DNA from: a virus
Direction: 5' to 3' (one strand)
DNA: 64,000 bases
IMG/VR virus record: IMGVR_UViG_3300031992_000044
The translations under genes were made by a program, and so were the position numbers. The notes beneath the pieces were generated by a model. That model had not been told where the DNA came from, searched no databases, and saw only the letters and a list, made by a program, of their open reading frames with translations. This document shows positions 3,610-39,215 of the stretch, one piece after another; positions within the stretch are counted from its first letter, which is position 1, and each line of letters begins with the position of its first letter.

Positions 3610-3792
3610 ACTAAGACGTAGCTAACGGCCACCGCTAATAACCTCCATTAAATTACCTTAGAAGGTACATCTCTTGCTGTCCCATACTTATGTGGGCCAA
3701 GCTCACGCAATCTTACGTGTCTTTTTTCTCTACCTCCACGATTCCAATACCAATCGTGGAACCATTCTTTTCGTTCTTCTTTTGTCATCATT

Positions 3793-3872
3793 GCAATCAG
3801 GTGGGGATTCGAACCCCACAATCCGTCAACTACCTTTTAGGGTGACCGTCATAACCTCTAGACTACTGATTT
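3793..3872 (-). tRNA. tRNA-like gene, non-canonical (22-nt anticodon arm, anticodon unassigned)
   Basis: Minus strand AAATCAG TA GTCT AGAGGTTA TGAC ... GTGGGG TTCGAAT CCCCAC CTGATTG. Acceptor, D-arm and T-arm are good. The anticodon region GTCACCCTAAAAGGTAGTTGAC is 5 nt too long. Confidence 0.4.
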
Positions 3873-4134
3873 CCAAAATTAACAGCTTCCCGACCTGATA
3901 TTATCTCCCGGTTGGCGGAATGTTCCAATCAGAATTTGCCTGAAGACACTCACACTGCTATTGTTAAAATCCCATTTCTTCTTTAGATGGAATCTTTTCA
4001 TTGTTTTTCTGAAGTGATCTTGCTAAAAGCACTATTAACTGCTTATCTTTTTCTTCAGGAAACATTCTTTTTGCTAATCTATAATATTTTTTCTTCATAA
4101 TCGTTAGGGGCTGGCTGCCGTTAGGCCTCCAGTC

Positions 4135-4597
4135 CTCCACCACTGACCTTTTATAATTCCCTTCCGTTTCACTACAGTTAATCTAAACATACACTAAAGA
4201 AACTAAACGTCTGTAGGTTCGTCCCGTACTCGGCATTTTTGTTTAACGACAGAAAACTAACTGTCCGGGCGGATTATTTGGTTGTCAGCACCACTGACCT
4301 TTTATTAGCTTTCACGTTACCCCTTCTAGGCGAAGCCTAGTTTGTTCGTACGATTTCCACGTACCCGCAGTTTATTAGACTTACGCGGAACGATTATCTA
4401 ATCTATTGGTTGTCATCACCATAATTCCTGATCCGTGTATCGATATAATAATATATCAATCGTTTCCGTTATTAAAACGGTGGCCATCAGCACCACTGAC
4501 CTTTAGCCAAAGACCAAGATATGCCTTCTCGGCCCTAGGATTTGGACTCTACGGTTATCGTTTATTCCGTAGCGAATGGTTGTCAGCACCACTGACC
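4135..4597. repeat. dispersed 20-nt hairpin repeat GGTTGTCAGCACCACTGACC (5 copies)
   Basis: Copies at 4135-4148 (partial), 4280-4299, 4408-4420 (variant), 4479-4501 and 4578-4597. Core GTCAG-CACCA-CTGAC is a 5-bp hairpin. Spacing is irregular (about 100-200 nt). Confidence 0.8.
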
Positions 4598-4705
4598 ATT
4601 ATACAGACAAATTCTTTGTTATCTTGGTATATAGTTCCGGATGTTCTCTATGTAGCATCTTCAAAACATCTTCTACTTCAAATAGCAAATCTTTTGTCTG
4701 TTCCT

Positions 4706-13584: not shown

Positions 13585-14253
13585 TTACTCAGCGCCGCTA
13601 GTAGCCGATACTTCAACCATAGCACTCACGTCACCCTTCAGGATGTCACGGAAGTCTACGGTCTCTATCTTGGTCTCCTGGAGCTCCTTGGCGAACTTCT
13701 GAGCCTTCTTGGTGTTGTCATTGATGGCACCAATCAGATTCTGCTTAATACTATTCAAAGCCTTAATAAGGGCCTCAACAGCGTTGAGCTCTGACTTGTT
13801 GGCATCGTTGATAACAGTAGCTACTGCTACGGGGTTGAGGAAGAAATTCTCGCCTTCACCCTTGAGGGCGTCAGCTATTGCCTCGGGAGTACCCTTCACC
13901 AGGTTGAATATGTCCTTGTTGAGGGGGAAGAACTGATCGAATGTTCCGTCCTGACGGAGGTTGATTGCGATACCCATCTCACCAGTGACAGGACGCTGAT
14001 AATACTGAGCGCCGAAGATATCGACGTCCTTCAGCATATACTTGTTAATCTTGCGGTTGGGGATCAACATGGTGGAGAGACCGTTACGAACTTTCTCGTT
14101 GTCGGCATCCCAGCCCTGATCGCCACCCTGCCAGGTGTTACGAGATTCTACCTTGTGGTAAGCCTGGCCTACCAACGAACCAACCATAGATCCGATGCCG
14201 CGACTTGTAGGAATTGCAGCCTGGATATTAATGTCAATGTTTTTTGTTTCCAT
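13585..14253 (-). CDS. hypothetical protein (222 aa)
   Basis: Intact ORF. TAA stop. Confidence 0.5.
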   Translation of the reverse strand: METKNIDINIQAAIPTSRGIGSMVGSLVGQAYHKVESRNTWQGGDQGWDADNEKVRNGLSTMLIPNRKINKYMLKDVDIFGAQYYQRPVTGEMGIAINLRQDGTFDQFFPLNKDIFNLVKGTPEAIADALKGEGENFFLNPVAVATVINDANKSELNAVEALIKALNSIKQNLIGAINDNTKKAQKFAKELQETKIETVDFRDILKGDVSAMVEVSATSGAE

Positions 14254-16369
14254 TTTTTTTCTTATCCTTTTTGATATCGTTATTGATTAACTAACGATAA
14301 GAATTAATATTTCCTCCACTTATGGCGGGAGGGTAACCTTTGAGTTTGAAAATGTGGCGTTCTGGCTCAAAGGCTCTACGAACGTTTATCTTTAGATCTT
14401 TTAATGTTAATATCTTTATGCGTGCTCACGAGAGCAATCTTTTTTCATCCAATAGGATCTTCCAGCTAGATAAATTACGTAGCACGAACACTATTTCATT
14501 TATCGGGGACTCAGCGATAGAGTCAGCCATGCCCATCATTAGAAGATTGTTGTATTTTCTGTAAAAGTACAAAAAGTGATATATTGTAACCAAACATAAG
14601 ATCCATTGAGATTATGTTAATAAATAATTTACATGCACTGAATGTTTTCAACACTATTCGTTGGCAGCATTTCACAAGGACTACTGTTCGTAGAATATGC
14701 TTACTAAACCCAGCGGCATTTAACCAACAAAAATTGTGTAATTCTTCCTAGCGTATTTTCCCGTTTTGCTTGGAATCCTTACCATGTTTCTGAATATTTA
14801 ACGAGACTAACAGCAACATTAACGTTCTCGTCCACGCTCAGCATAAGGCATCTCATGCGTAGACATGTTTTATTATCGGAATGGTCTAGAGCTCCAGAAC
14901 TCATTATGGACCTACGGTTTTTTGTTGTACATTCAGCTTTACTGCTGTCTTCTGTTTATAGTGCGCGAATACTGGAGGAATTCCACCTCATACGCTATAA
15001 GATTTATCACCCACCTAAAGATTCACTTTGTCGAACTCTCCTTCAATTTCCTCAAAAGGTATGGATCTCCGGTTTGCTTTACCCCTCCGAGACAGGGAGG
15101 TGATTTCATTTCACGATAGGCTGCCTTACATCGTTTACGTATATTGACTTTATACTTTCTACCCACATAGATTTGCTGTCTATGCTTCGCTTCGTTGCGT
15201 ATTCTGTCTACTTGCTTCTCAGGAACGGTTGGCACTCGATTTCTTGGCGTGAAAGCACCCACAAGCGTTACAAACGGGGTCTTTATCTTCTCCCAGCCAA
15301 GGGACATCTATTAGATTTAACAATATATTTAATGTAACGATATTTTCATAAGCCTTATCTTAGAATCAAGTTATGCCGCACATAAGTTTACTACTCTCAC
15401 TGATATAGTATAACAGGTTCAGGTCTTATTATCTTTTGCATTACACGAGCGATCTCCTTCTGTACTGGATGTACAGTTCTCGAATCGACCCTATCTCACT
15501 ATAAAATAACTTGGGTTTGACTGTCAGGTTGTCATCCTTCGACTCCAGCATTTCCTCTGGTACATCTCCAATCTATATTACTTAACTATCGCTTATCATA
15601 GTCTTTCATACCTTTTGAATAGTCTTTCACCCCGGACTTCACTCGGGTAGCATTCAGTCCTCTAGGACTATACTCCGCATTATGTGGCGCATCCACATGT
15701 GGTCATTTACTTTTAGCACGAATCAATTCCACGTGTCTTATACCGCTTGAACGACCAAAGCCTGGCGGTCACCTTCATCATATTTTTCTCAGTACCCCAT
15801 CCCCGGCACCCCTTCAACGGAGTCGTGCTGAATCGAACAGCAAGGACTTCTCCAAGGAACGTAGTTACGGTACGTCGCAGACAGTTAAACCTTCTGCTAG
15901 GCTCATATACTCCAGTAGTTTTCATCCCTTCATACACGCTGTGGAGGCGTGGAACACTAGACTACAGCTTAATTTGTGATACATCCGTATACTCTTTGGA
16001 TTAGTATACGCTGCAACTCGTGTAACGTGATTCTAGGTCTATGTAATCTCTCGAAACCTAGATCTATCGATACGGTTCGTTTTGCGCTTCTTGCGACTTA
16101 TGTGTCTTCTCTTGACTACCCTCACCAGACGGTTCTCAGGGACCAGAATAGGGTTGATACAACGCTCTCCCTAATATCCACAAGCTTTTCACACTTGCGA
16201 TCTTCCATCCTACCTTTTGAGTTTCTCACCCGTTGAGCGGGCTAACATATTCTCGGATCAAGTAAATTTGCGTACACGGCTAATGAGACCGTTGCCTTAG
16301 CTGTACTGACGTGCTGCCAAACTGGCTGGGGGATACAGGCAGTGTCCCATATCCCCCGCACCGGAGTGA
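14254..16369. other. 2.1-kb ORF-free, hairpin-rich island (function unknown)
   Basis: Only short, mutually overlapping ORFs on both strands. Contains a TGGCTCAAAGGCTC motif copy (14363-14376), a GGTTGTCATCC motif (about 15527-15537), a tRNA-Tyr-like relic and many stems. By eye it is more G+C-rich than flanking genes. Confidence 0.7.
15818..15913 (-). pseudogene. tRNA-Tyr(GTA)-like relic
   Basis: T-arm TGCTG TTCGATT CAGCA at 15826-15842. Arm ACGTA CCGTAAC TACGT at 15859-15875 (C at position 33). D-like arm GCAGA..TCTGC and a long variable region. Acceptor pairing is only 5/7, with extra 5' nucleotides. Confidence 0.35.
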
Positions 16370-16828
16370 TTATCGCTTATAGACTTCCTCACCGTCGACA
16401 ATGAGGATAATGGACTCTTTAGGAGATCCAATAGTGTCTGCGGGATTCTCCTCTCGACCCGCACCGAAGTTGTTTACAACAGGTGGATCAGGTAAGATAG
16501 CTGGAATGCTATCGCCTAAACGTTTCTCTGTTGCACGTGCAGGCTTCGGCGCCCGTACGTATTTTATTTTATACACAATACTGTCTCTATAAACAGTATC
16601 GGGTACTGTAGTATTGCCAAGACATTCTTGACAAGTAGTATCTTTCTCCAAATTCAATTGGAGATCAAGAGGCAGCTTTCCGTACTTATTTGGAGCCCAA
16701 TTAAGTACAGGTGCTGCGCTCGCAGACTTATAGTCTGTGCTATCGTCATGCGAGGGCGCGTATATGGCCAATCCAGTTCCGCCAATGGCAAATAGGATGG
16801 CGCATATAATGGTTGTTATATGTCTCAT
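16370..16828 (-). CDS. secreted/membrane-anchored protein (152 aa)
   Basis: N-terminal hydrophobic signal MRHITTIICAILFAIGGTGLAIYA. TAA stop, followed by an 8-bp GGGGGATA/TATCCCCC hairpin. Confidence 0.55.
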   Translation of the reverse strand: MRHITTIICAILFAIGGTGLAIYAPSHDDSTDYKSASAAPVLNWAPNKYGKLPLDLQLNLEKDTTCQECLGNTTVPDTVYRDSIVYKIKYVRAPKPARATEKRLGDSIPAILPDPPVVNNFGAGREENPADTIGSPKESIILIVDGEEVYKR

Positions 16829-26577: not shown

Positions 26578-26601
26578 AATTGTAAATATTGGTGAGTTTT
26601 G

Positions 26602-26672
26602 TAGTCTCTAGGAGAGTCGAACTCCTCTTCTAACAATGAAAATGTTATGTCCTACCGATAGACGAAGAGACC
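26602..26672 (-). tRNA. tRNA-Glu (anticodon TTC)
   Basis: GGTCTCT TC GTCT ATCGGTA GGAC A TAACA TTTTCAT TGTTA GAAG AGGAG TTCGACT CTCCT AGAGACT A. Confidence 0.8.
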
Positions 26673-27110
26673 AGGTAGGTAGTTACACGGGGAGAGGTAA
26701 AAAAACACGAGCCTTGAGTCCTTTTCAGAGTACGCCCTACATAACCACTGTTATGATTGTAACTACCTAATTGGTGAGACTGTTTATAGGATCTGGCAGG
26801 GTAGGCATTTCCCCTCGATTCTATCCTATGCACGGTACAGTCTCTTAAACCTCTTTAGTAAAACGTCCTATCTAGTTGAGTTAGATATCATACCCCAACT
26901 ATGCACCACCCTCCTGCTAATATCGCCTGTAGCGAATCCCTCGGACGTATTTGTTGCTGTGAAAAGTATACCCTGTCTCACGACAGAGTATACATGTAAT
27001 GAACACTTTCATTTAAATAACTTAAATAAACATTAAAAGTACTATGAAAATAAACCTTTAACACATTATTAATTTATCAATTAAGAAATGTCACACGCTT
27101 CACAGCGTTG

Positions 27111-27185
27111 TGTGGGAGAATGGATTCCAACCACTACCTACAGATGCAGAATCTGTCGCTCTGATGGTTATTAAGCTACTCCCAC
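27111..27185 (-). tRNA. tRNA-Gln (anticodon CTG), unusual D/T loops
   Basis: GTGGGAG TA GCTT AATAACCATCA GAGC G ACAGA TTCTGCA TCTGT AGGT AGTGG TTGGAAT CCATT CTCCCAC A. All four stems pair. The D-loop has CC instead of GG, and the T-loop has G at position 56. Confidence 0.65.
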
Positions 27186-27509
27186 TATACTCAGTTTGAC
27201 CCACTGAGTCTTAGAATAACTTCGTGCTGAGTCCGATTAGAAGAGCGTCTTTTCGACTTAGTTATCTAAGTTGGACAGGTATACATATGTCCGCGTTTAA
27301 TGCAATTGCACCCTCTCATCATTCGTACAGTAGAGATTGTCTAGACGTTGTATTCAGTTTCCTCATTTAATTCTGACTAACTGATAAAATCCAGATTCTG
27401 TACTTGCGGGCTTGAGGTTTCCGCTTTAGCTGATTTCTATGCAATATTGTAATGAACTCCCGTGCTTCACAGCAGAGGAGTTCAATAATGAATAAAATTA
27501 AAAGGACAT

Positions 27510-29099: not shown

Positions 29100-29102
29100 T
29101 GT

Positions 29103-29285
29103 TCAAATTTTTTGATTGATTTCGTCCACTTGTTCAAGGACAACTTTTTGGATGTTGTCATGACGCTTTTGCTCATTTTTAAGAGCTTTTAATTCAGAGT
29201 TTACTCTATATATGAGCACAAGTGCCCATACTAAGAAGATGAGAGTTAATGCTATATGGAAGCGCTCTAAGATTTCTAATGTCAT
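29103..29285 (-). CDS. small membrane protein (60 aa)
   Basis: Hydrophobic helix ALTLIFLVWALVLIY. Start context TTATCAAAATG. Confidence 0.45.
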   Translation of the reverse strand: MTLEILERFHIALTLIFLVWALVLIYRVNSELKALKNEQKRHDNIQKVVLEQVDEINQKI

Positions 29286-29305
29286 TTTGATAATGTTTTT
29301 TGATG

Positions 29306-29413
29306 TTATTCACTTGTAGAAGACCTGTCGCTTCTACTCGACCCACGAAACGCTTCGTAGTAAAATATGCAGATTAATACTACAATGATAAAACCTACAA
29401 ATAATCCACTCAT
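29306..29413 (-). CDS. tiny membrane peptide (35 aa)
   Basis: Hand-translated MSGLFVGFIIVVLICIFYYEAFRGSSRSDRSSTSE. ATGA overlap with the upstream stop. Confidence 0.3.
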   Translation of the reverse strand: MSGLFVGFIIVVLICIFYYEAFRGSSRSDRSSTSE

Positions 29414-29778: not shown

Positions 29779-30658
29779 GCGCTTAATGGTTCGGTTTCAG
29801 CGCAATCCATACCAGAAGGGCTGTCATCCCTTGTATACTGGCCCTACTAACCATAGTTTTGACGTACTATTTTTATCACAGGGGAGTATTGTACTTCTAA
29901 TCCCGACATTTACATGTTTCGTCTTAATTTTCAAAGACTCTTCAGGGGATTTAATAAAACTCCTCATATCTTCACAGACCTGAGGAGGAATAACTAGATA
30001 ACTAAAAAAACCTAAAACTTATATGGATAATTGTTATAATGGTTCTTATAAAAGGGCGGAGAGGGCCCCTTGTCCATGCTTCGGATCTCCGCCCTGCACT
30101 CTACGTTCCTAGCATCTATAGCTGCATCACGATTCTTTACACAGATTAACCAACTGAGCATTCTGCTTTTCTTTCTGTGCGAGTGACCATACATAGATGG
30201 ATTTTTGTTTGTGAGGACTAGTATCATCACCTCACAGTACCCTCTCTTTACGTCAAGCAGGGCTTTGTTTTTGTAAGGACTTGGAACGGTAGTCACCTCA
30301 CTGTACACCTATTGCCTAGTGTCTTTCGACCAATGTGCTTTGTGGAGTCTTAGGTCCGATTACTCCCAGAACGTCTTTTTGAGCGTTTCAGTTTATCTTA
30401 CGCACAACTTGACTACTTTTGTTTTTCAACCTTTTTTCAAACAAAGCGCGAATCAATCCACAAGGTTTTCTCAGTGTTCGTTTAATGTCATGCTGCTGAG
30501 CTACCCACATGACTAACAATACAGCTTACGATTTCCTTGGTCACGTAATACTGCATCAAAAGACATTTCCGTTTCGTCTTAATTTTCAAAGACTCATCGG
30601 GCGCTTTGGTGAGCGCAACGGAAGAGCAGTTTTAACACTTGCTTAGGTGCTGAATAAC
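29779..30658. other. ORF-free island with 25-nt direct repeats and a degenerate tandem duplication
   Basis: GTTTCGTCTTAATTTTCAAAGACTC at 29916-29940 and 30571-30595. Two roughly 60-nt related units at about 30196-30262 and 30263-30320. Strong 9-bp stem GGGCGGAGA/TCTCCGCCC at about 30054-30095. The only ORF (30012..30308) looks non-genic. Confidence 0.65.
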
Positions 30659-31289: not shown

Positions 31290-32208
31290 GTGAGGAAATA
31301 GAGTGTGCCCAGCTCTTTAACGTGGCTGGGCTTTACTTTGTTATTTGAATTGATTTCAAATATAAAAGGCTGAGTGTTGACCTTTTGTGTTACCATTTAT
31401 ATCTCTTTCAAGATATTCACACACCTGTTTTTATCAAGTAGGTAACATACGGACACATTTTTATTAGAAATGTGCAAAAACTACTCTCATATTATGTAGA
31501 CTAATTTCTCACTCATGGCGCTTGCGGCTTAACAGAGTGCCCCCTGAGACCAGATAAGTTTGATTTCATCTTTGTGTTTTCCTTGCGGTACTCACACAAT
31601 CTGCGTATTACAGCAGAACAACCGTATTTTCATACGAGAGTGCATAACACTTTTGCTTTTGTTAAATACTTTGGATAAAATAGATAACTAGAGCTCTGCT
31701 TGGAAGATGTGGTTATGCTTGTCACCATACTGGCTTTTGACCAGCTGCAGGTGCAACACCTTCCTATTTTCGCCTGCCAAGGCTACTCATTTCTAATAGT
31801 TTTATTTATCCTACCATTTCTGACTCAAGTAACCAGCTGGAGTTCACCATTGGTTGATGAATAGGATATTACTAATAGATTACACACTCTATTGGACTGG
31901 CAATCCTCTGGAGTATGATTATACTATATATTGTCGGTGTTACCACCCAAGGTAGCTTAGCAAGAGCCACCGTATACCTCTTCAACTCTGCCCGAGTATC
32001 CCAAGATATACTTATATAGTATAGCTTTCTTATGAACAGAGTCTGTGCTAAAGCACATATCTGCGCACACTCTTTCTAAAGGAGTGCACTTTATAGCATC
32101 GCTGCTTTATTCTCAAAGACAAGAAGCCTGCCTTCCATCACCGTTCACATTACTGTGCCGACTACTTTGGATATGTCGGGTGTAGGTTTAAAGGGGCTAA
32201 TGCCCAAG
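31290..32208. other. ORF-free island (0.9 kb)
   Basis: No ORF of 60 aa or more on the minus strand. Contains numerous stems and one copy of the 33-nt CCCAGC/GCTGGG hairpin element at 31304-31336. Confidence 0.65.
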
Positions 32209-32616: not shown

Positions 32617-32681
32617 ATGTTTATTGATTGAATTGATTTCAAGTTGTGCCCAGCTCTTTAACGTGGCTGGGCTTTACGTTA

Positions 32682-32822
32682 TCAGGTGTACCATATATCA
32701 TTCTGGGGATTTAATTCTGGCAATGTTATCCCCAAAGATAATGTTATTTGAGCAAGTCTTTTATATTCTTGTTCTTCATCAAATGGTACAGCAAAGTTTT
32801 CTGCTATTCTTCTGTAGTTCAT
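32682..32822 (-). CDS. small protein (46 aa)
   Basis: Hand-translated MNYRRIAENFAVPFDEEQEYKRLAQITLSLGITLPELNPQNDIWYT. Below the ORF-track cutoff. Confidence 0.35.
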   Translation of the reverse strand: MNYRRIAENFAVPFDEEQEYKRLAQITLSLGITLPELNPQNDIWYT

Positions 32823-33033
32823 ATGTTATTTGATTGATTGATTCAAACAAAAGCGGGAGAGTTGCTGAGTACAGACCAGCATCGCTCTCCCTACTTAATC
32901 ACAAAGTTGAGCTACTTTTTTGGCATTTCCCCATAGCTCTACGTTAGCGCCATGATCCGGGCTTTATTAGTGTGTGCAATTTAATGTTTAACTCCAGGGT
33001 GTACAACGGTCAAATCATACACCCTATCAACGT

Positions 33034-34012: not shown

Positions 34013-34173
34013 ACTTTAAAACGTTTTAAGTGGAACAATGTTATGCAGTTGATGTCTGCATTCGATAATAAATGGCTTATTCGATTTCTGCCTAGTTGTG
34101 TACGACTATGGTTATCAGTATAGATTGTGTACCTAGCGTGTTGTGTGTGTCAAACATAAGCCAAACCTACGCA

Positions 34174-34368
34174 TTACCGCGCAGGATTGGACTTTTCCGC
34201 GTATCGCACGTTGTCCACGAATGTGATGCGTGTGAACCGCTTGTTGAGGTGCTTTTTGCAGCGCAGTGCTGCTGCGAAGCACTCCTCTTGTGTGGGATAC
34301 TCGGGAGATGTACGCCAGTTGCCGTTGGACATCTCGATGCTGAACTGATAGGTGGTAATTGTTTCCAT
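34174..34368 (-). CDS. hypothetical protein (64 aa)
   Basis: Intact ORF. Operator-like repeat 28 nt upstream. Confidence 0.45.
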   Translation of the reverse strand: METITTYQFSIEMSNGNWRTSPEYPTQEECFAAALRCKKHLNKRFTRITFVDNVRYAEKSNPAR

Positions 34369-34544
34369 AATCTATTTTGTTAAGTTATGCAATATTGCAT
34401 TCGATAGGAAAAGGCTTATTCGACCGGAAGTTACCCGGGGGTACTTTCCTTTTGGCGAACAGGTGGGGAGGTGATTGGAGTGTGTTTCTTGTTTCTGCAT
34501 ATATAATACAATTTCTCGTTTCCACACTCGCACAACAAAAAATT

Positions 34545-34594
34545 TTGCAAAAAAAAATAAAAAGAGCTAAGAAGATTACTCCTCCTAGCTCTTT
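34545..34594 (-). terminator. strong Rho-independent terminator
   Basis: Minus strand AAAGAGCTA-GGAGGAGTAATCTTCT-TAGCTCTTT followed by TTATTTTTTTTT. Confidence 0.75.
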
Positions 34595-34752
34595 CCATTA
34601 TGTTTATGTTGTGCTTTATACTTTACTATGCGTTCATGTAGATCTGTTCTATCTTCTAATAGTATGTCTAGAAGATACCAATATTCTTCTCCAGCCTCTT
34701 CGTATAGCGTTTCTACAGTAAAATTCCTGCAATACGGCACTCTCCACTCCAT
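34576..34752 (-). CDS. small protein (55 aa, or 58 aa if the TAG is read through)
   Basis: Hand-translated MEWRVPYCRNFTVETLYEEAGEEYWYLLDILLEDRTDLHERIVKYKAQHKHNGKS, then TAG (34585-87), EE, TAA. Confidence 0.4.
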
Positions 34753-34961
34753 TATCTAAACAAATCTATTAGTTTATTCTTACTATCAGGTTTCTCAAAA
34801 GGTTCTAAGATAAACTCCCAATCTATTTTATCCCAATCATCTTCCCCAGATGTACATAAATCATATCTACGTATACTCTCTTGTTTCTGCTCTTCAGTAT
34901 ACTCATCATTATCTGCAGATATTAGAGTACCGTAGATTAATGCTCTTATATCATTCTCCAT
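34752..34961 (-). CDS. hypothetical acidic protein (69 aa)
   Basis: Intact co-oriented ORF. Confidence 0.45.
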   Translation of the reverse strand: MENDIRALIYGTLISADNDEYTEEQKQESIRRYDLCTSGEDDWDKIDWEFILEPFEKPDSKNKLIDLFR

Positions 34962-35160
34962 CTTCTTTTACTGCATATGTTACCCAGCCGGCAAATTTAG
35001 TACAACCTTTATCTATCATTTCTTGGAATGCTTCTGCGGCTTGTTCTTTAGTAACTCCAATTTGTTCAATAGGGACGCTTATATATGGCCGCAATCCGTC
35101 TTCTCCTTTAGGTGCTTCTAGAAATAAGAAGTGTACCATTGTATCAGTTCTGTTCTCCAT
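34951..35160 (-). CDS. hypothetical protein (69 aa)
   Basis: Intact co-oriented ORF overlapping both neighbours. Confidence 0.45.
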   Translation of the reverse strand: MENRTDTMVHFLFLEAPKGEDGLRPYISVPIEQIGVTKEQAAEAFQEMIDKGCTKFAGWVTYAVKEDGE

Positions 35161-39140: not shown

Positions 39141-39215
39141 TGCTCCATGGTGTAGCGGTAGCACGGGAGGCTCTAACCCTCCAGGTCCGGGTTCGACTCG
39201 ATGGTGGGGCGACCA
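39141..39215 (+). tRNA. amber suppressor tRNA (anticodon CTA), Gln-like architecture, CCA encoded
   Basis: TGCTCCA TG GTGT AGCGGTA GCAC G GGAGG CTCTAAC CCTCC ... TGGGGCG A CCA. Anticodon CTA at 39173-39175. 7-bp acceptor (2 G-U pairs). The D-arm matches the phage tRNA-Gln(TTG). The T-arm (CCGGG TTCGACT CGATG) pairs badly. Confidence 0.75.

Follow-up and report, generated by a model that had tools for sequence, protein, structure and literature searches.

What occupies more than 2 kilobases (kb) of a phage early arm in which no gene can be recognised? The question is posed by positions 14254-16369 (the island) of a 64,000-nucleotide (nt) stretch of viral DNA, IMG/VR record IMGVR_UViG_3300031992_000044, which was analysed as a whole (the window) and is part of a crAss-like phage genome. 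A sequence-only reading had proposed that this island, one of several without open reading frames (ORFs), may encode a large structured RNA, be a decayed array of transfer RNA (tRNA) genes, or both. The first of these proposals has held up, on the evidence of family-wide synteny, covariation with controls and no coding signal. The island contains a non-coding, conserved and structured element that is found throughout the phage family Suoliviridae and has no match among the 4227 families of Rfam 15. Very probably it is a functional structured RNA locus. The more specific reading favoured here, with a probability of roughly 0.6, is that of a large, multi-domain, non-coding single RNA that would act in trans and be a hallmark of Suoliviridae.

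Conservation and coding status of the gap

When the island was compared by blastn with 50,697 phage genomes, matches were returned only from Suoliviridae records (cr272_1, cr273_1, cr130_1, cr131_1, a Bohxovirus, cr7_1, cr124_1 and cr52_1). Gene order around the locus is conserved among relatives: a sigma factor, a small ORF, genes of ~470 and ~140 amino acids (aa), the gap, genes of ~200 and ~180 aa, then usually a tRNA. Sigma-factor anchors for this comparison were found by tblastn in 51 phage records. All relatives examined have an unannotated gap of 1.85-2.5 kb at this syntenic place, into which some annotations put tiny ORFs of both polarities. It is present in all four Suoliviridae subfamilies sampled, namely Oafivirinae (cr272_1, cr130_1, Bohxovirus, cr7_1), Loutivirinae (cr52_1, cr4_1), Boorivirinae (cr1_1) and Uncouvirinae (cr114_1, cr118_1), and also in the unclassified Dulem virus 42.

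The gap is filled with near-invariant blocks interspersed with variable, indel-rich hairpins. Core nucleotide blocks are 75-87% identical in genomes whose neighbouring 482-aa protein is 27-34% identical, and across 17 diverse copies the conservation of the blocks is 0.6-0.9 versus 0.3-0.5 in flanking coding sequence. At family range, the island core is therefore the most conserved DNA of the locus. At short range the picture differs: in the nearest relative (L007 2177-4501) the flanking protein is 99% identical and the island 87-96%, with indels, which indicates that the RNA diverges fast between close relatives.

Profile searches extend this distribution. A profile hidden Markov model covers 16309-14260 from end to end and has a full-length match in Dulem virus 42 (E 3e-182). 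The Oafivirinae profile of the element matches Loutivirinae in two blocks, and region-specific profiles carry the matches to Boorivirinae. A covariance model, R1, was made from the core of the 5' domain (194 positions, 27 base pairs (bp)); it scores 123-124 bits in Loutivirinae, 97 bits in Boorivirinae, and 36.5 and 26 bits in two Uncouvirinae (E 6e-8 and 4e-5). Both R1 and nhmmer matches are confined to the syntenic gap of each genome. Since R1 matches that gap in every sampled subfamily, the element can be regarded as a family-level character of Suoliviridae. In addition, a search with an invariant 14-nt motif and a short anchor downstream of it retrieved at least 80 IMG/VR contigs, nearly all of crAss-like size. 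The contigs listed yielded 60 distinct full-length copies, which fall into 15 clusters at 80% similarity, counted as blastn-aligned identical bases over a 2350-nt extract.

Outside the family, crAss-like phages gave no blastn match (R1 was not run there). In a scan of 185,579 species genomes, true copies occurred only on phage-like contigs binned into metagenome-assembled genomes. Six contigs from Sulfurimonas, Campylobacterales and related organisms match the degenerate three-block DNA pattern of the element with an identical 149-nt span. These were rejected as cellular homologues, as they fit neither R1 nor the island profile, and are probably an unrelated conserved sequence of Campylobacterota.

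No ORF longer than 94 aa lies on either strand of the island under the standard code, in agreement with the sequence-only reading, which had also held that TAG recoding rescues no gene at the 16369 edge. With TAG, TGA or TAA as sense, the island gives at most 171-209 open codons, on the plus strand. No open frame is kept in frame or position across 29 relatives, among which the longest frames vary in frame, position and strand, and one or two stop reassignments bring no rescue. Peptide similarity is confined to places with invariant nucleotide blocks, indels in the island alignment are not multiples of three, and the codon periodicity of substitutions is 1.04-1.2 versus 1.6 in the next gene. 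A codon-periodic conserved frame was also looked for under alternative genetic codes and was not found; these codes and antisense ORFs were rejected for lack of a conserved frame and of periodicity.

Covariation and parts of the element

Structure is supported by evolution and not by folding energy. The 29 copies used, all less than 96% similar to one another by the measure given above, were aligned with MAFFT and folded as the minus strand with RNAalifold. The consensus holds 244 pairs, 149 of them with pair-keeping changes on both sides, at a minimum free energy (MFE) of -253. For ten column shuffles, in which conservation and gap content are maintained, the figures were 107-151 pairs, of which 16-30 were compensatory, and an energy of -93 to -109. 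Thus both conservation and covariation among related phages, whose absence would have spoken for junk, are present. The consensus is an uncurated RNAalifold model and the alignment of variable regions is uncertain.

Further support comes from the 5' region, where 33 sequences including Loutivirinae, Boorivirinae and the Dulem virus could be aligned and compensatory change is seen in 15 of 19 predicted pairs. For a 37-pair structure of this region, 87.4% of cells are paired, versus 36-47% when partners are slid by 1-3 columns; its covariation score of 0.356 compares with 0.06-0.11 after sliding and was reached by none of 500 shuffles. For example, the hairpin ACGG-UCUCAUUA-GCCGU varies in relatives to UGGG/CCCA, UAGA/UCUA and AAGGG/CCCUU, and the stem AUCC/GGAU to GUUC/GAAC, GCCC/GGGC and GUGG/CCAC. 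In comparison with the nearest relative, pairing is kept in 14 pairs that changed on both sides and lost in 4.

On this basis, the element can be divided into the following parts, all on the minus strand:

14275..16305, minus: whole conserved non-coding element, about 2.03 kb, from the first conserved hairpin to the conserved hairpin at the 3' end
15670..16305, minus: 5' domain, the best conserved, with helices of 4-7 covarying pairs each
16275-16293, minus: hairpin of the 5' domain with the invariant 7-nt loop CUCAUUA
16077..16267, minus: core of the 5' domain, basis of R1, one copy in the window
16122..16138, minus: almost invariant 17-nt hairpin loop UGAGAACCGUCUGGUGA, whose 14-nt core is the IMG/VR seed
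15826..15842, minus: T-arm-like hairpin GCUG-UUCGAUU-CAGC (5 bp plus T-loop), 5/5 pairs covarying, 96% canonical
15750..15770, minus: invariant block GACCGCCAGGCUUUGGUCGUU, conservation 0.88, candidate partner of the 17-nt loop
14950..15330, minus: central domain with invariant blocks GAGUGCCAACCGU, AGUGGGUGACAAG and UAUUCGUGCACUAUAAA
14435..14920, minus: 3' domain, less conserved (0.3-0.6), with covarying helices
14263..14299, minus: terminal palindrome AUCGUUAGUUAAUCAAUAACGAU then AUCAAAAAGGAU, just upstream of the ATG of the 222-aa gene, conservation 0.89
16328..16357, minus: lineage-specific 8-bp hairpin GGGGGAUA/UAUCCCCC, outside the conserved element and absent from aligned relatives

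Besides the hairpins listed, the 5' domain has a stem GAUCC/GGAUC, a GCCCG/CGGGU hairpin and other helices. The T-loop modules noted in the sequence-only reading are represented by the conserved one at 15826-15842, with a loop conservation of 0.94; several island hairpins have 7-nt loops. A middle region separates the 5' and central domains. Searched alone with nhmmer, the central domain matches Dulem virus 42 (1e-38), Loutivirinae (3e-20 and 2e-12) and Boorivirinae (5e-6), and these matches follow the 5' domain in the same order in relatives; its helix at 15165-15185 covaries in 7/7 pairs. In the 3' domain, helices at 14877-14916, 14508-14524, 14461-14504 and 14439-14567 have 3-5 covarying pairs each. 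The terminal hairpin (14275-14299) is a single copy in the window, with a 7-bp stem and 3 covarying pairs, and may either form the 3' end of the RNA or control the next gene.

Several observations point to the minus strand. The fold is better there (-253 vs -215 for plus), and in a Watson-Crick-only, strand-neutral fold 22 pairs have only G-U exceptions and 9 only A-C. Unpaired positions, read on this strand, are 36% A and 15% C, with purine-rich loops, and the direction of all neighbouring genes agrees with it. The element would thus be read from roughly 16305 to 14275, ends that we infer from conservation, which begins ~60 nt past the upstream stop codon and ends in the palindrome 10-20 nt before the next ATG.

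One RNA, several RNAs or a cis-acting element

A possible course of events can be outlined. The element would be transcribed with the leftward, non-recoded arm, from ~16305 to ~14275 (1.85-2.03 kb), and the RNA would fold into many short helices joined by conserved A-rich unpaired blocks. The T-loop and, probably, loop-to-strand contacts would organise a compact multi-domain RNA. As a stable folded particle (a scaffold, an RNA-only assembly or the core of a ribonucleoprotein (RNP)) it would then most likely act in trans and, by analogy with GOLLD and ROOL (PMC12286853), may engage the translation or RNA machinery of host or phage during infection. A bolder version is tentative, its odds being less than even: that a ~2-kb single RNA in every Suoliviridae phage forms a three-dimensional machine (RNA-only assembly, RNP core or ribozyme), with an activity outside the known RNA classes that is needed to infect gut Bacteroidota.

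A number of points weigh against the single trans-acting RNA. RNAalifold itself rewards covariation, and the shuffles control for this only in aggregate. Stability adds nothing: the sequence-only reading had described the islands as packed with 5-9-bp stems, and the stem it quoted does pair (GGGGGATA at 16350-16357 with TATCCCCC at 16328-16335, lineage-specific and in the unconserved first 60 nt), but the single-sequence MFE of the best-conserved 611 nt, compared with shuffles, has z scores of +1.3 on the minus and +0.1 on the plus strand. Support for the minus strand is moderate, as pairs common to both strand folds include 149 G-U versus 106 A-C. Scans for sigma-70 and Bacteroides-type promoters and for intrinsic terminators revealed no ends that are conserved or convincing. 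Covarying helices with a span of more than 250 nt do not exceed a parallel-stack null, which weakens the case for a single 2-kb molecule. Finally, the flanking proteins, with no sequence match in Pfam, PHROG or PDB, gave no functional lead, and any function proposed for the RNA is purely by analogy.

The lack of long-range stacks speaks for an alternative that is less likely, a tandem set of three to five independent RNAs of ~300-600 nt each, released from a polycistronic transcript. Covariation supports local helices only, conservation falls into separate domains split by variable, indel-rich spacers, and the same arm of related phages is crowded with separate small RNAs and with self-cleaving ribozymes. 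Yet the domains are never found apart: each subfamily in which they can be detected has them in one order and with similar spacing, and no Rfam, ribozyme or tRNA-like punctuation lies between them at E<=10. Invariant blocks far apart are also complementary: UAGUGU or AGUGC with GCACUA, and 16122-16138 with 15750-15770. The latter candidate is an 8-bp consensus helix at gapRC 240-247/603-610, 93% canonical, where gapRC counts positions from 16369 on the minus strand (window coordinate = 16370 - gapRC). In distant subfamilies the positions of this pairing are inconsistent and compatible with chance, and there is no usable covariation.

It is quite improbable that the element acts in cis, either as a long structured leader or processing platform for downstream genes or as a DNA-level origin or packaging site. 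Its place between the sigma-factor block and the replication module would suit such a role, as would the conserved palindrome directly before the next start codon and the lack of a terminator between element and next gene. However, 2 kb with ~50 helices, T-loop-type modules and invariant single-stranded blocks exceeds known leaders; to our knowledge, bacterial and phage leaders fall far short of this. The invariant blocks have no antisense targets within the window. An iteron-type replication origin was rejected, as the 2.2 kb hold one 14-nt two-copy match and one 14-nt inverted pair; GC content is 35-50% throughout the island, with no AT-rich unwinding element, iterons or direct repeats. In addition, the pairs tolerate G-U more often than A-C, and this speaks for RNA and against DNA.

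The remaining two explanations are hardly credible. Coding, by an unusual code, many small ORFs or the plus-strand ORF annotated in two relatives (160-168 aa at the equivalent place in Bohxovirus and cr7_1), can point to those annotations, to the 171 codons opened in the island by TAG as sense and to a plus-strand frame free of TGA for 501 codons, but none of the frames is conserved, and the plus strand of the island is pyrimidine-rich, so that few stop codons and long stop-free runs would be expected by chance. A decayed tRNA array, some other junk or an artefact of assembly could be suspected from the tRNA genes and T-arm-like hairpin in or near the islands and from the 7-nt loops, but ARAGORN and RF00005 detect no tRNA or tRNA-like sequence in 14254-16369 even at E<=10 (six tRNA or transfer-messenger RNA (tmRNA) genes lie elsewhere), over 60 distinct and independent assemblies contain the element, adjacent genes are less conserved than its core, and its helices are maintained by compensatory changes; an element under purifying selection is not decaying, and the tRNA-array proposal of the sequence-only reading is abandoned.

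If the element is a single large RNA, to which known class could it belong? A cmscan of 13800-16800 against Rfam 15 at E<=10 gave only a chance match to PrrF, while the same library detects tRNAs, tmRNA, GOLLD and hammerheads elsewhere in the window. At this threshold, the island has no match to GOLLD (RF02032) or ROOL (RF03087), and ROOL has none in the whole window at E<=0.1. The earlier suggestion of ROOL or GOLLD thus fails for the island, and it succeeds for another one, as 31367-31764 is a divergent GOLLD. Models of group I and II introns (RF00028, RF00029, D1-D4) and of self-cleaving ribozymes and RAGATH motifs (hammerhead, hatchet, twister, pistol, RAGATH-n) do not match the island either. 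An intron was rejected, as the upstream ORF has its own stop and the first residue of the downstream protein is a Met that is conserved in the alignment with homologous proteins.

In kind, the element resembles the large ornate non-coding RNAs (ncRNAs): it is longer than 500 nt, non-coding, has covarying helices and lies in a phage or prophage context near tRNA genes. GOLLD, a large ornate phage-borne ncRNA of unclear role from tRNA-rich regions, likewise has a well-conserved and a more variable part and many covarying helices, as well as pseudoknots, and the same phage carries its divergent copy. It forms RNA-only nanocages (PMC12286853). However, the island has no sequence or structure match to GOLLD, is ~2.0 kb rather than ~0.8 kb, and occurs only in one phage family, always in the same syntenic place, while GOLLD turns up sporadically across many phages and bacteria. 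ROOL, likewise large and structured, is encoded by phages and prophages, often close to tRNA islands; it forms nanocages and is without a known protein partner (PMC12286853, PMC5737381), but it does not match, measures ~580-660 nt and has a host range of Firmicutes and rumen. RAGATH motifs, gut-metagenome RNAs known from comparative genomics, share a neighbourhood with the element, as they and ribozymes occur in early arms of Suoliviridae relatives and two hammerheads lie in the window. These motifs are 50-210 nt long and none matches the island, which is ten times larger and without a recognisable ribozyme core. In size and complexity, the element can be grouped with OLE, group II introns, RNase P and ribosomal RNA (rRNA), which are also multi-domain, with conserved single-stranded joins, T-loops and A-rich unpaired positions. 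Unlike these, it has no model match, no intron-like flanking exons and no associated protein with a recognisable RNA-binding fold.

A full-text search found no published description of a large ncRNA in crAss-like phages (most subscription papers were out of reach); Yutin et al. 2021 mention only regions with short ORFs of differing polarities. The element is new in sequence, in size (~2 kb) and in its fixed family-wide synteny, and in kind it resembles large ornate phage RNAs.

The early arm and its other RNA genes

In the window, genes left of ~36.9 kb are on the minus strand and use the standard code, while ORFs of the plus-strand right arm are open only with TAG as sense, which indicates TAG recoding of late genes. 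The following features frame the element:

39141-39215, plus: suppressor tRNA, anticodon CUA (labelled tRNA-Pyl by ARAGORN), at the start of the plus-strand arm
18787..19362, minus: phage sigma-factor gene (PHROG 1740, E 2e-25), synteny anchor across Suoliviridae
16370..16828, minus: upstream flanking gene, an ORF of 152 aa that ends 60 nt before the element, with syntenic homologues in relatives
13585..14253, minus: downstream flanking gene, an ORF of 222 aa with 116 homologue clusters, all without annotation

All neighbouring genes of the island are on the minus strand, and downstream of it follow the 222-aa gene, a 197-aa gene and then the replication module. A tRNA-Gln lies 2 kb downstream of the element; in relatives, a tRNA comes after the two downstream genes. 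The 152-aa protein has no match in Pfam, PHROG or PDB. AlphaFold2 models of the 222-aa and 482-aa proteins (predicted local distance difference test scores of ~77; 77.5 for the former) show no significant fold match in PDB.

The island is one of at least 11 gaps in the minus arm, about 8.9 kb in total, when a gap is taken as at least 240 nt without a minus-strand ORF of at least 70 aa. All seven ORF-free stretches listed in the sequence-only reading are among them. Five further gaps (3610-4705, 22240-22609, 29100-29409, 32617-33033 and 34013-35143), several of them absent from that list, have no Rfam match at E<=0.1. The claim that the late arm has no such gaps holds with TAG as sense, except at the suppressor-tRNA spot and the window end. 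Two other impressions were not sustained. The islands had seemed richer in GC than the genes around them, whereas the island has 41.6%, the window 39.3% and the flanking genes 44-52%. They had also seemed to share motifs, but neither the island profile nor R1 finds a second copy or a paralogue in other islands; the only inter-island repeat found consists of two hammerhead cores, both within 29779-30658.

Some of these other islands do hold RNA genes. In the window, the non-recoded arm contains four tRNAs and the following:

31367-31764, minus: divergent GOLLD, 96.3 bits (gathering 150), E 5e-25, model 1-416 of 416
30566-30624, minus: hammerhead ribozyme 2, core CCGAUGAG...CGAAAC, Rfam E 1e-5, below gathering score
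29899-29951, minus: hammerhead ribozyme 1, core CUGAAGAG...CGAAAC, Rfam E 0.0085, below gathering score
23771-24151, minus: permuted tmRNA, ARAGORN tag peptide GDYNIVDYTGLKEAA, Rfam tmRNA_permuted 49.4 bits

The GOLLD copy is full-length and is missed at the gathering threshold; its 919-nt island (31290-32208) fits a whole ~0.8-kb GOLLD including the variable 5' half. In cr272_1, the first 24 kb gave no GOLLD match. The two hammerheads are identical in stem II and its loop (5'-GAGUCUUUGAAAAUUAAGACGAAAC-3'), and each (29898-29952; 30571-30607) is 92% identical to one overlapping site of cr272_1 (L106 5501-5555). The permuted tmRNA also occurs in cr272_1 and cr114_1. A 49-nt block at 27400-27448 (minus strand) in island 26578-27509, beside tRNA-Glu and tRNA-Gln, is 92% identical to cr272_1 (L106 2887-2935) and has no Rfam match.

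The early arms of relatives (cr114_1, cr1_1 and cr272_1) add three hatchet ribozymes, a RAGATH-1-hammerhead, a group I intron, RAGATH-6, -7, -9, -20 and -22, and permuted tmRNAs. At least some of the RAGATH, hatchet and hammerhead motifs are therefore carried by crAss-like phages. Viewed in this way, the early arm is a cluster of RNA genes that helps to place these gut motifs in a biological host.

The element also accounts for 'gene-free' regions, which annotators have either left empty or populated with spurious small ORFs. Very few bacterial and phage RNAs longer than 500 nt are known, and those that have been studied (OLE, ROOL and GOLLD) revealed unexpected RNA-only quaternary structures (PMC12286853). 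If the bolder version is true, the element, at more than double the size of GOLLD, would define a new class of giant viral RNA; as a single RNA it would rank among the largest phage RNAs of unclear function. Its good natural alignment makes it suited to structure determination, by cryo-EM or chemical probing, and to functional genetics. Suoliviridae, the 'delta' crAss-like group, has been described as the largest crAss group of the human gut virome (PMC7886860), and an RNA the size of an rRNA that is kept at a fixed place and conserved better than the adjacent proteins must serve something central to infection.

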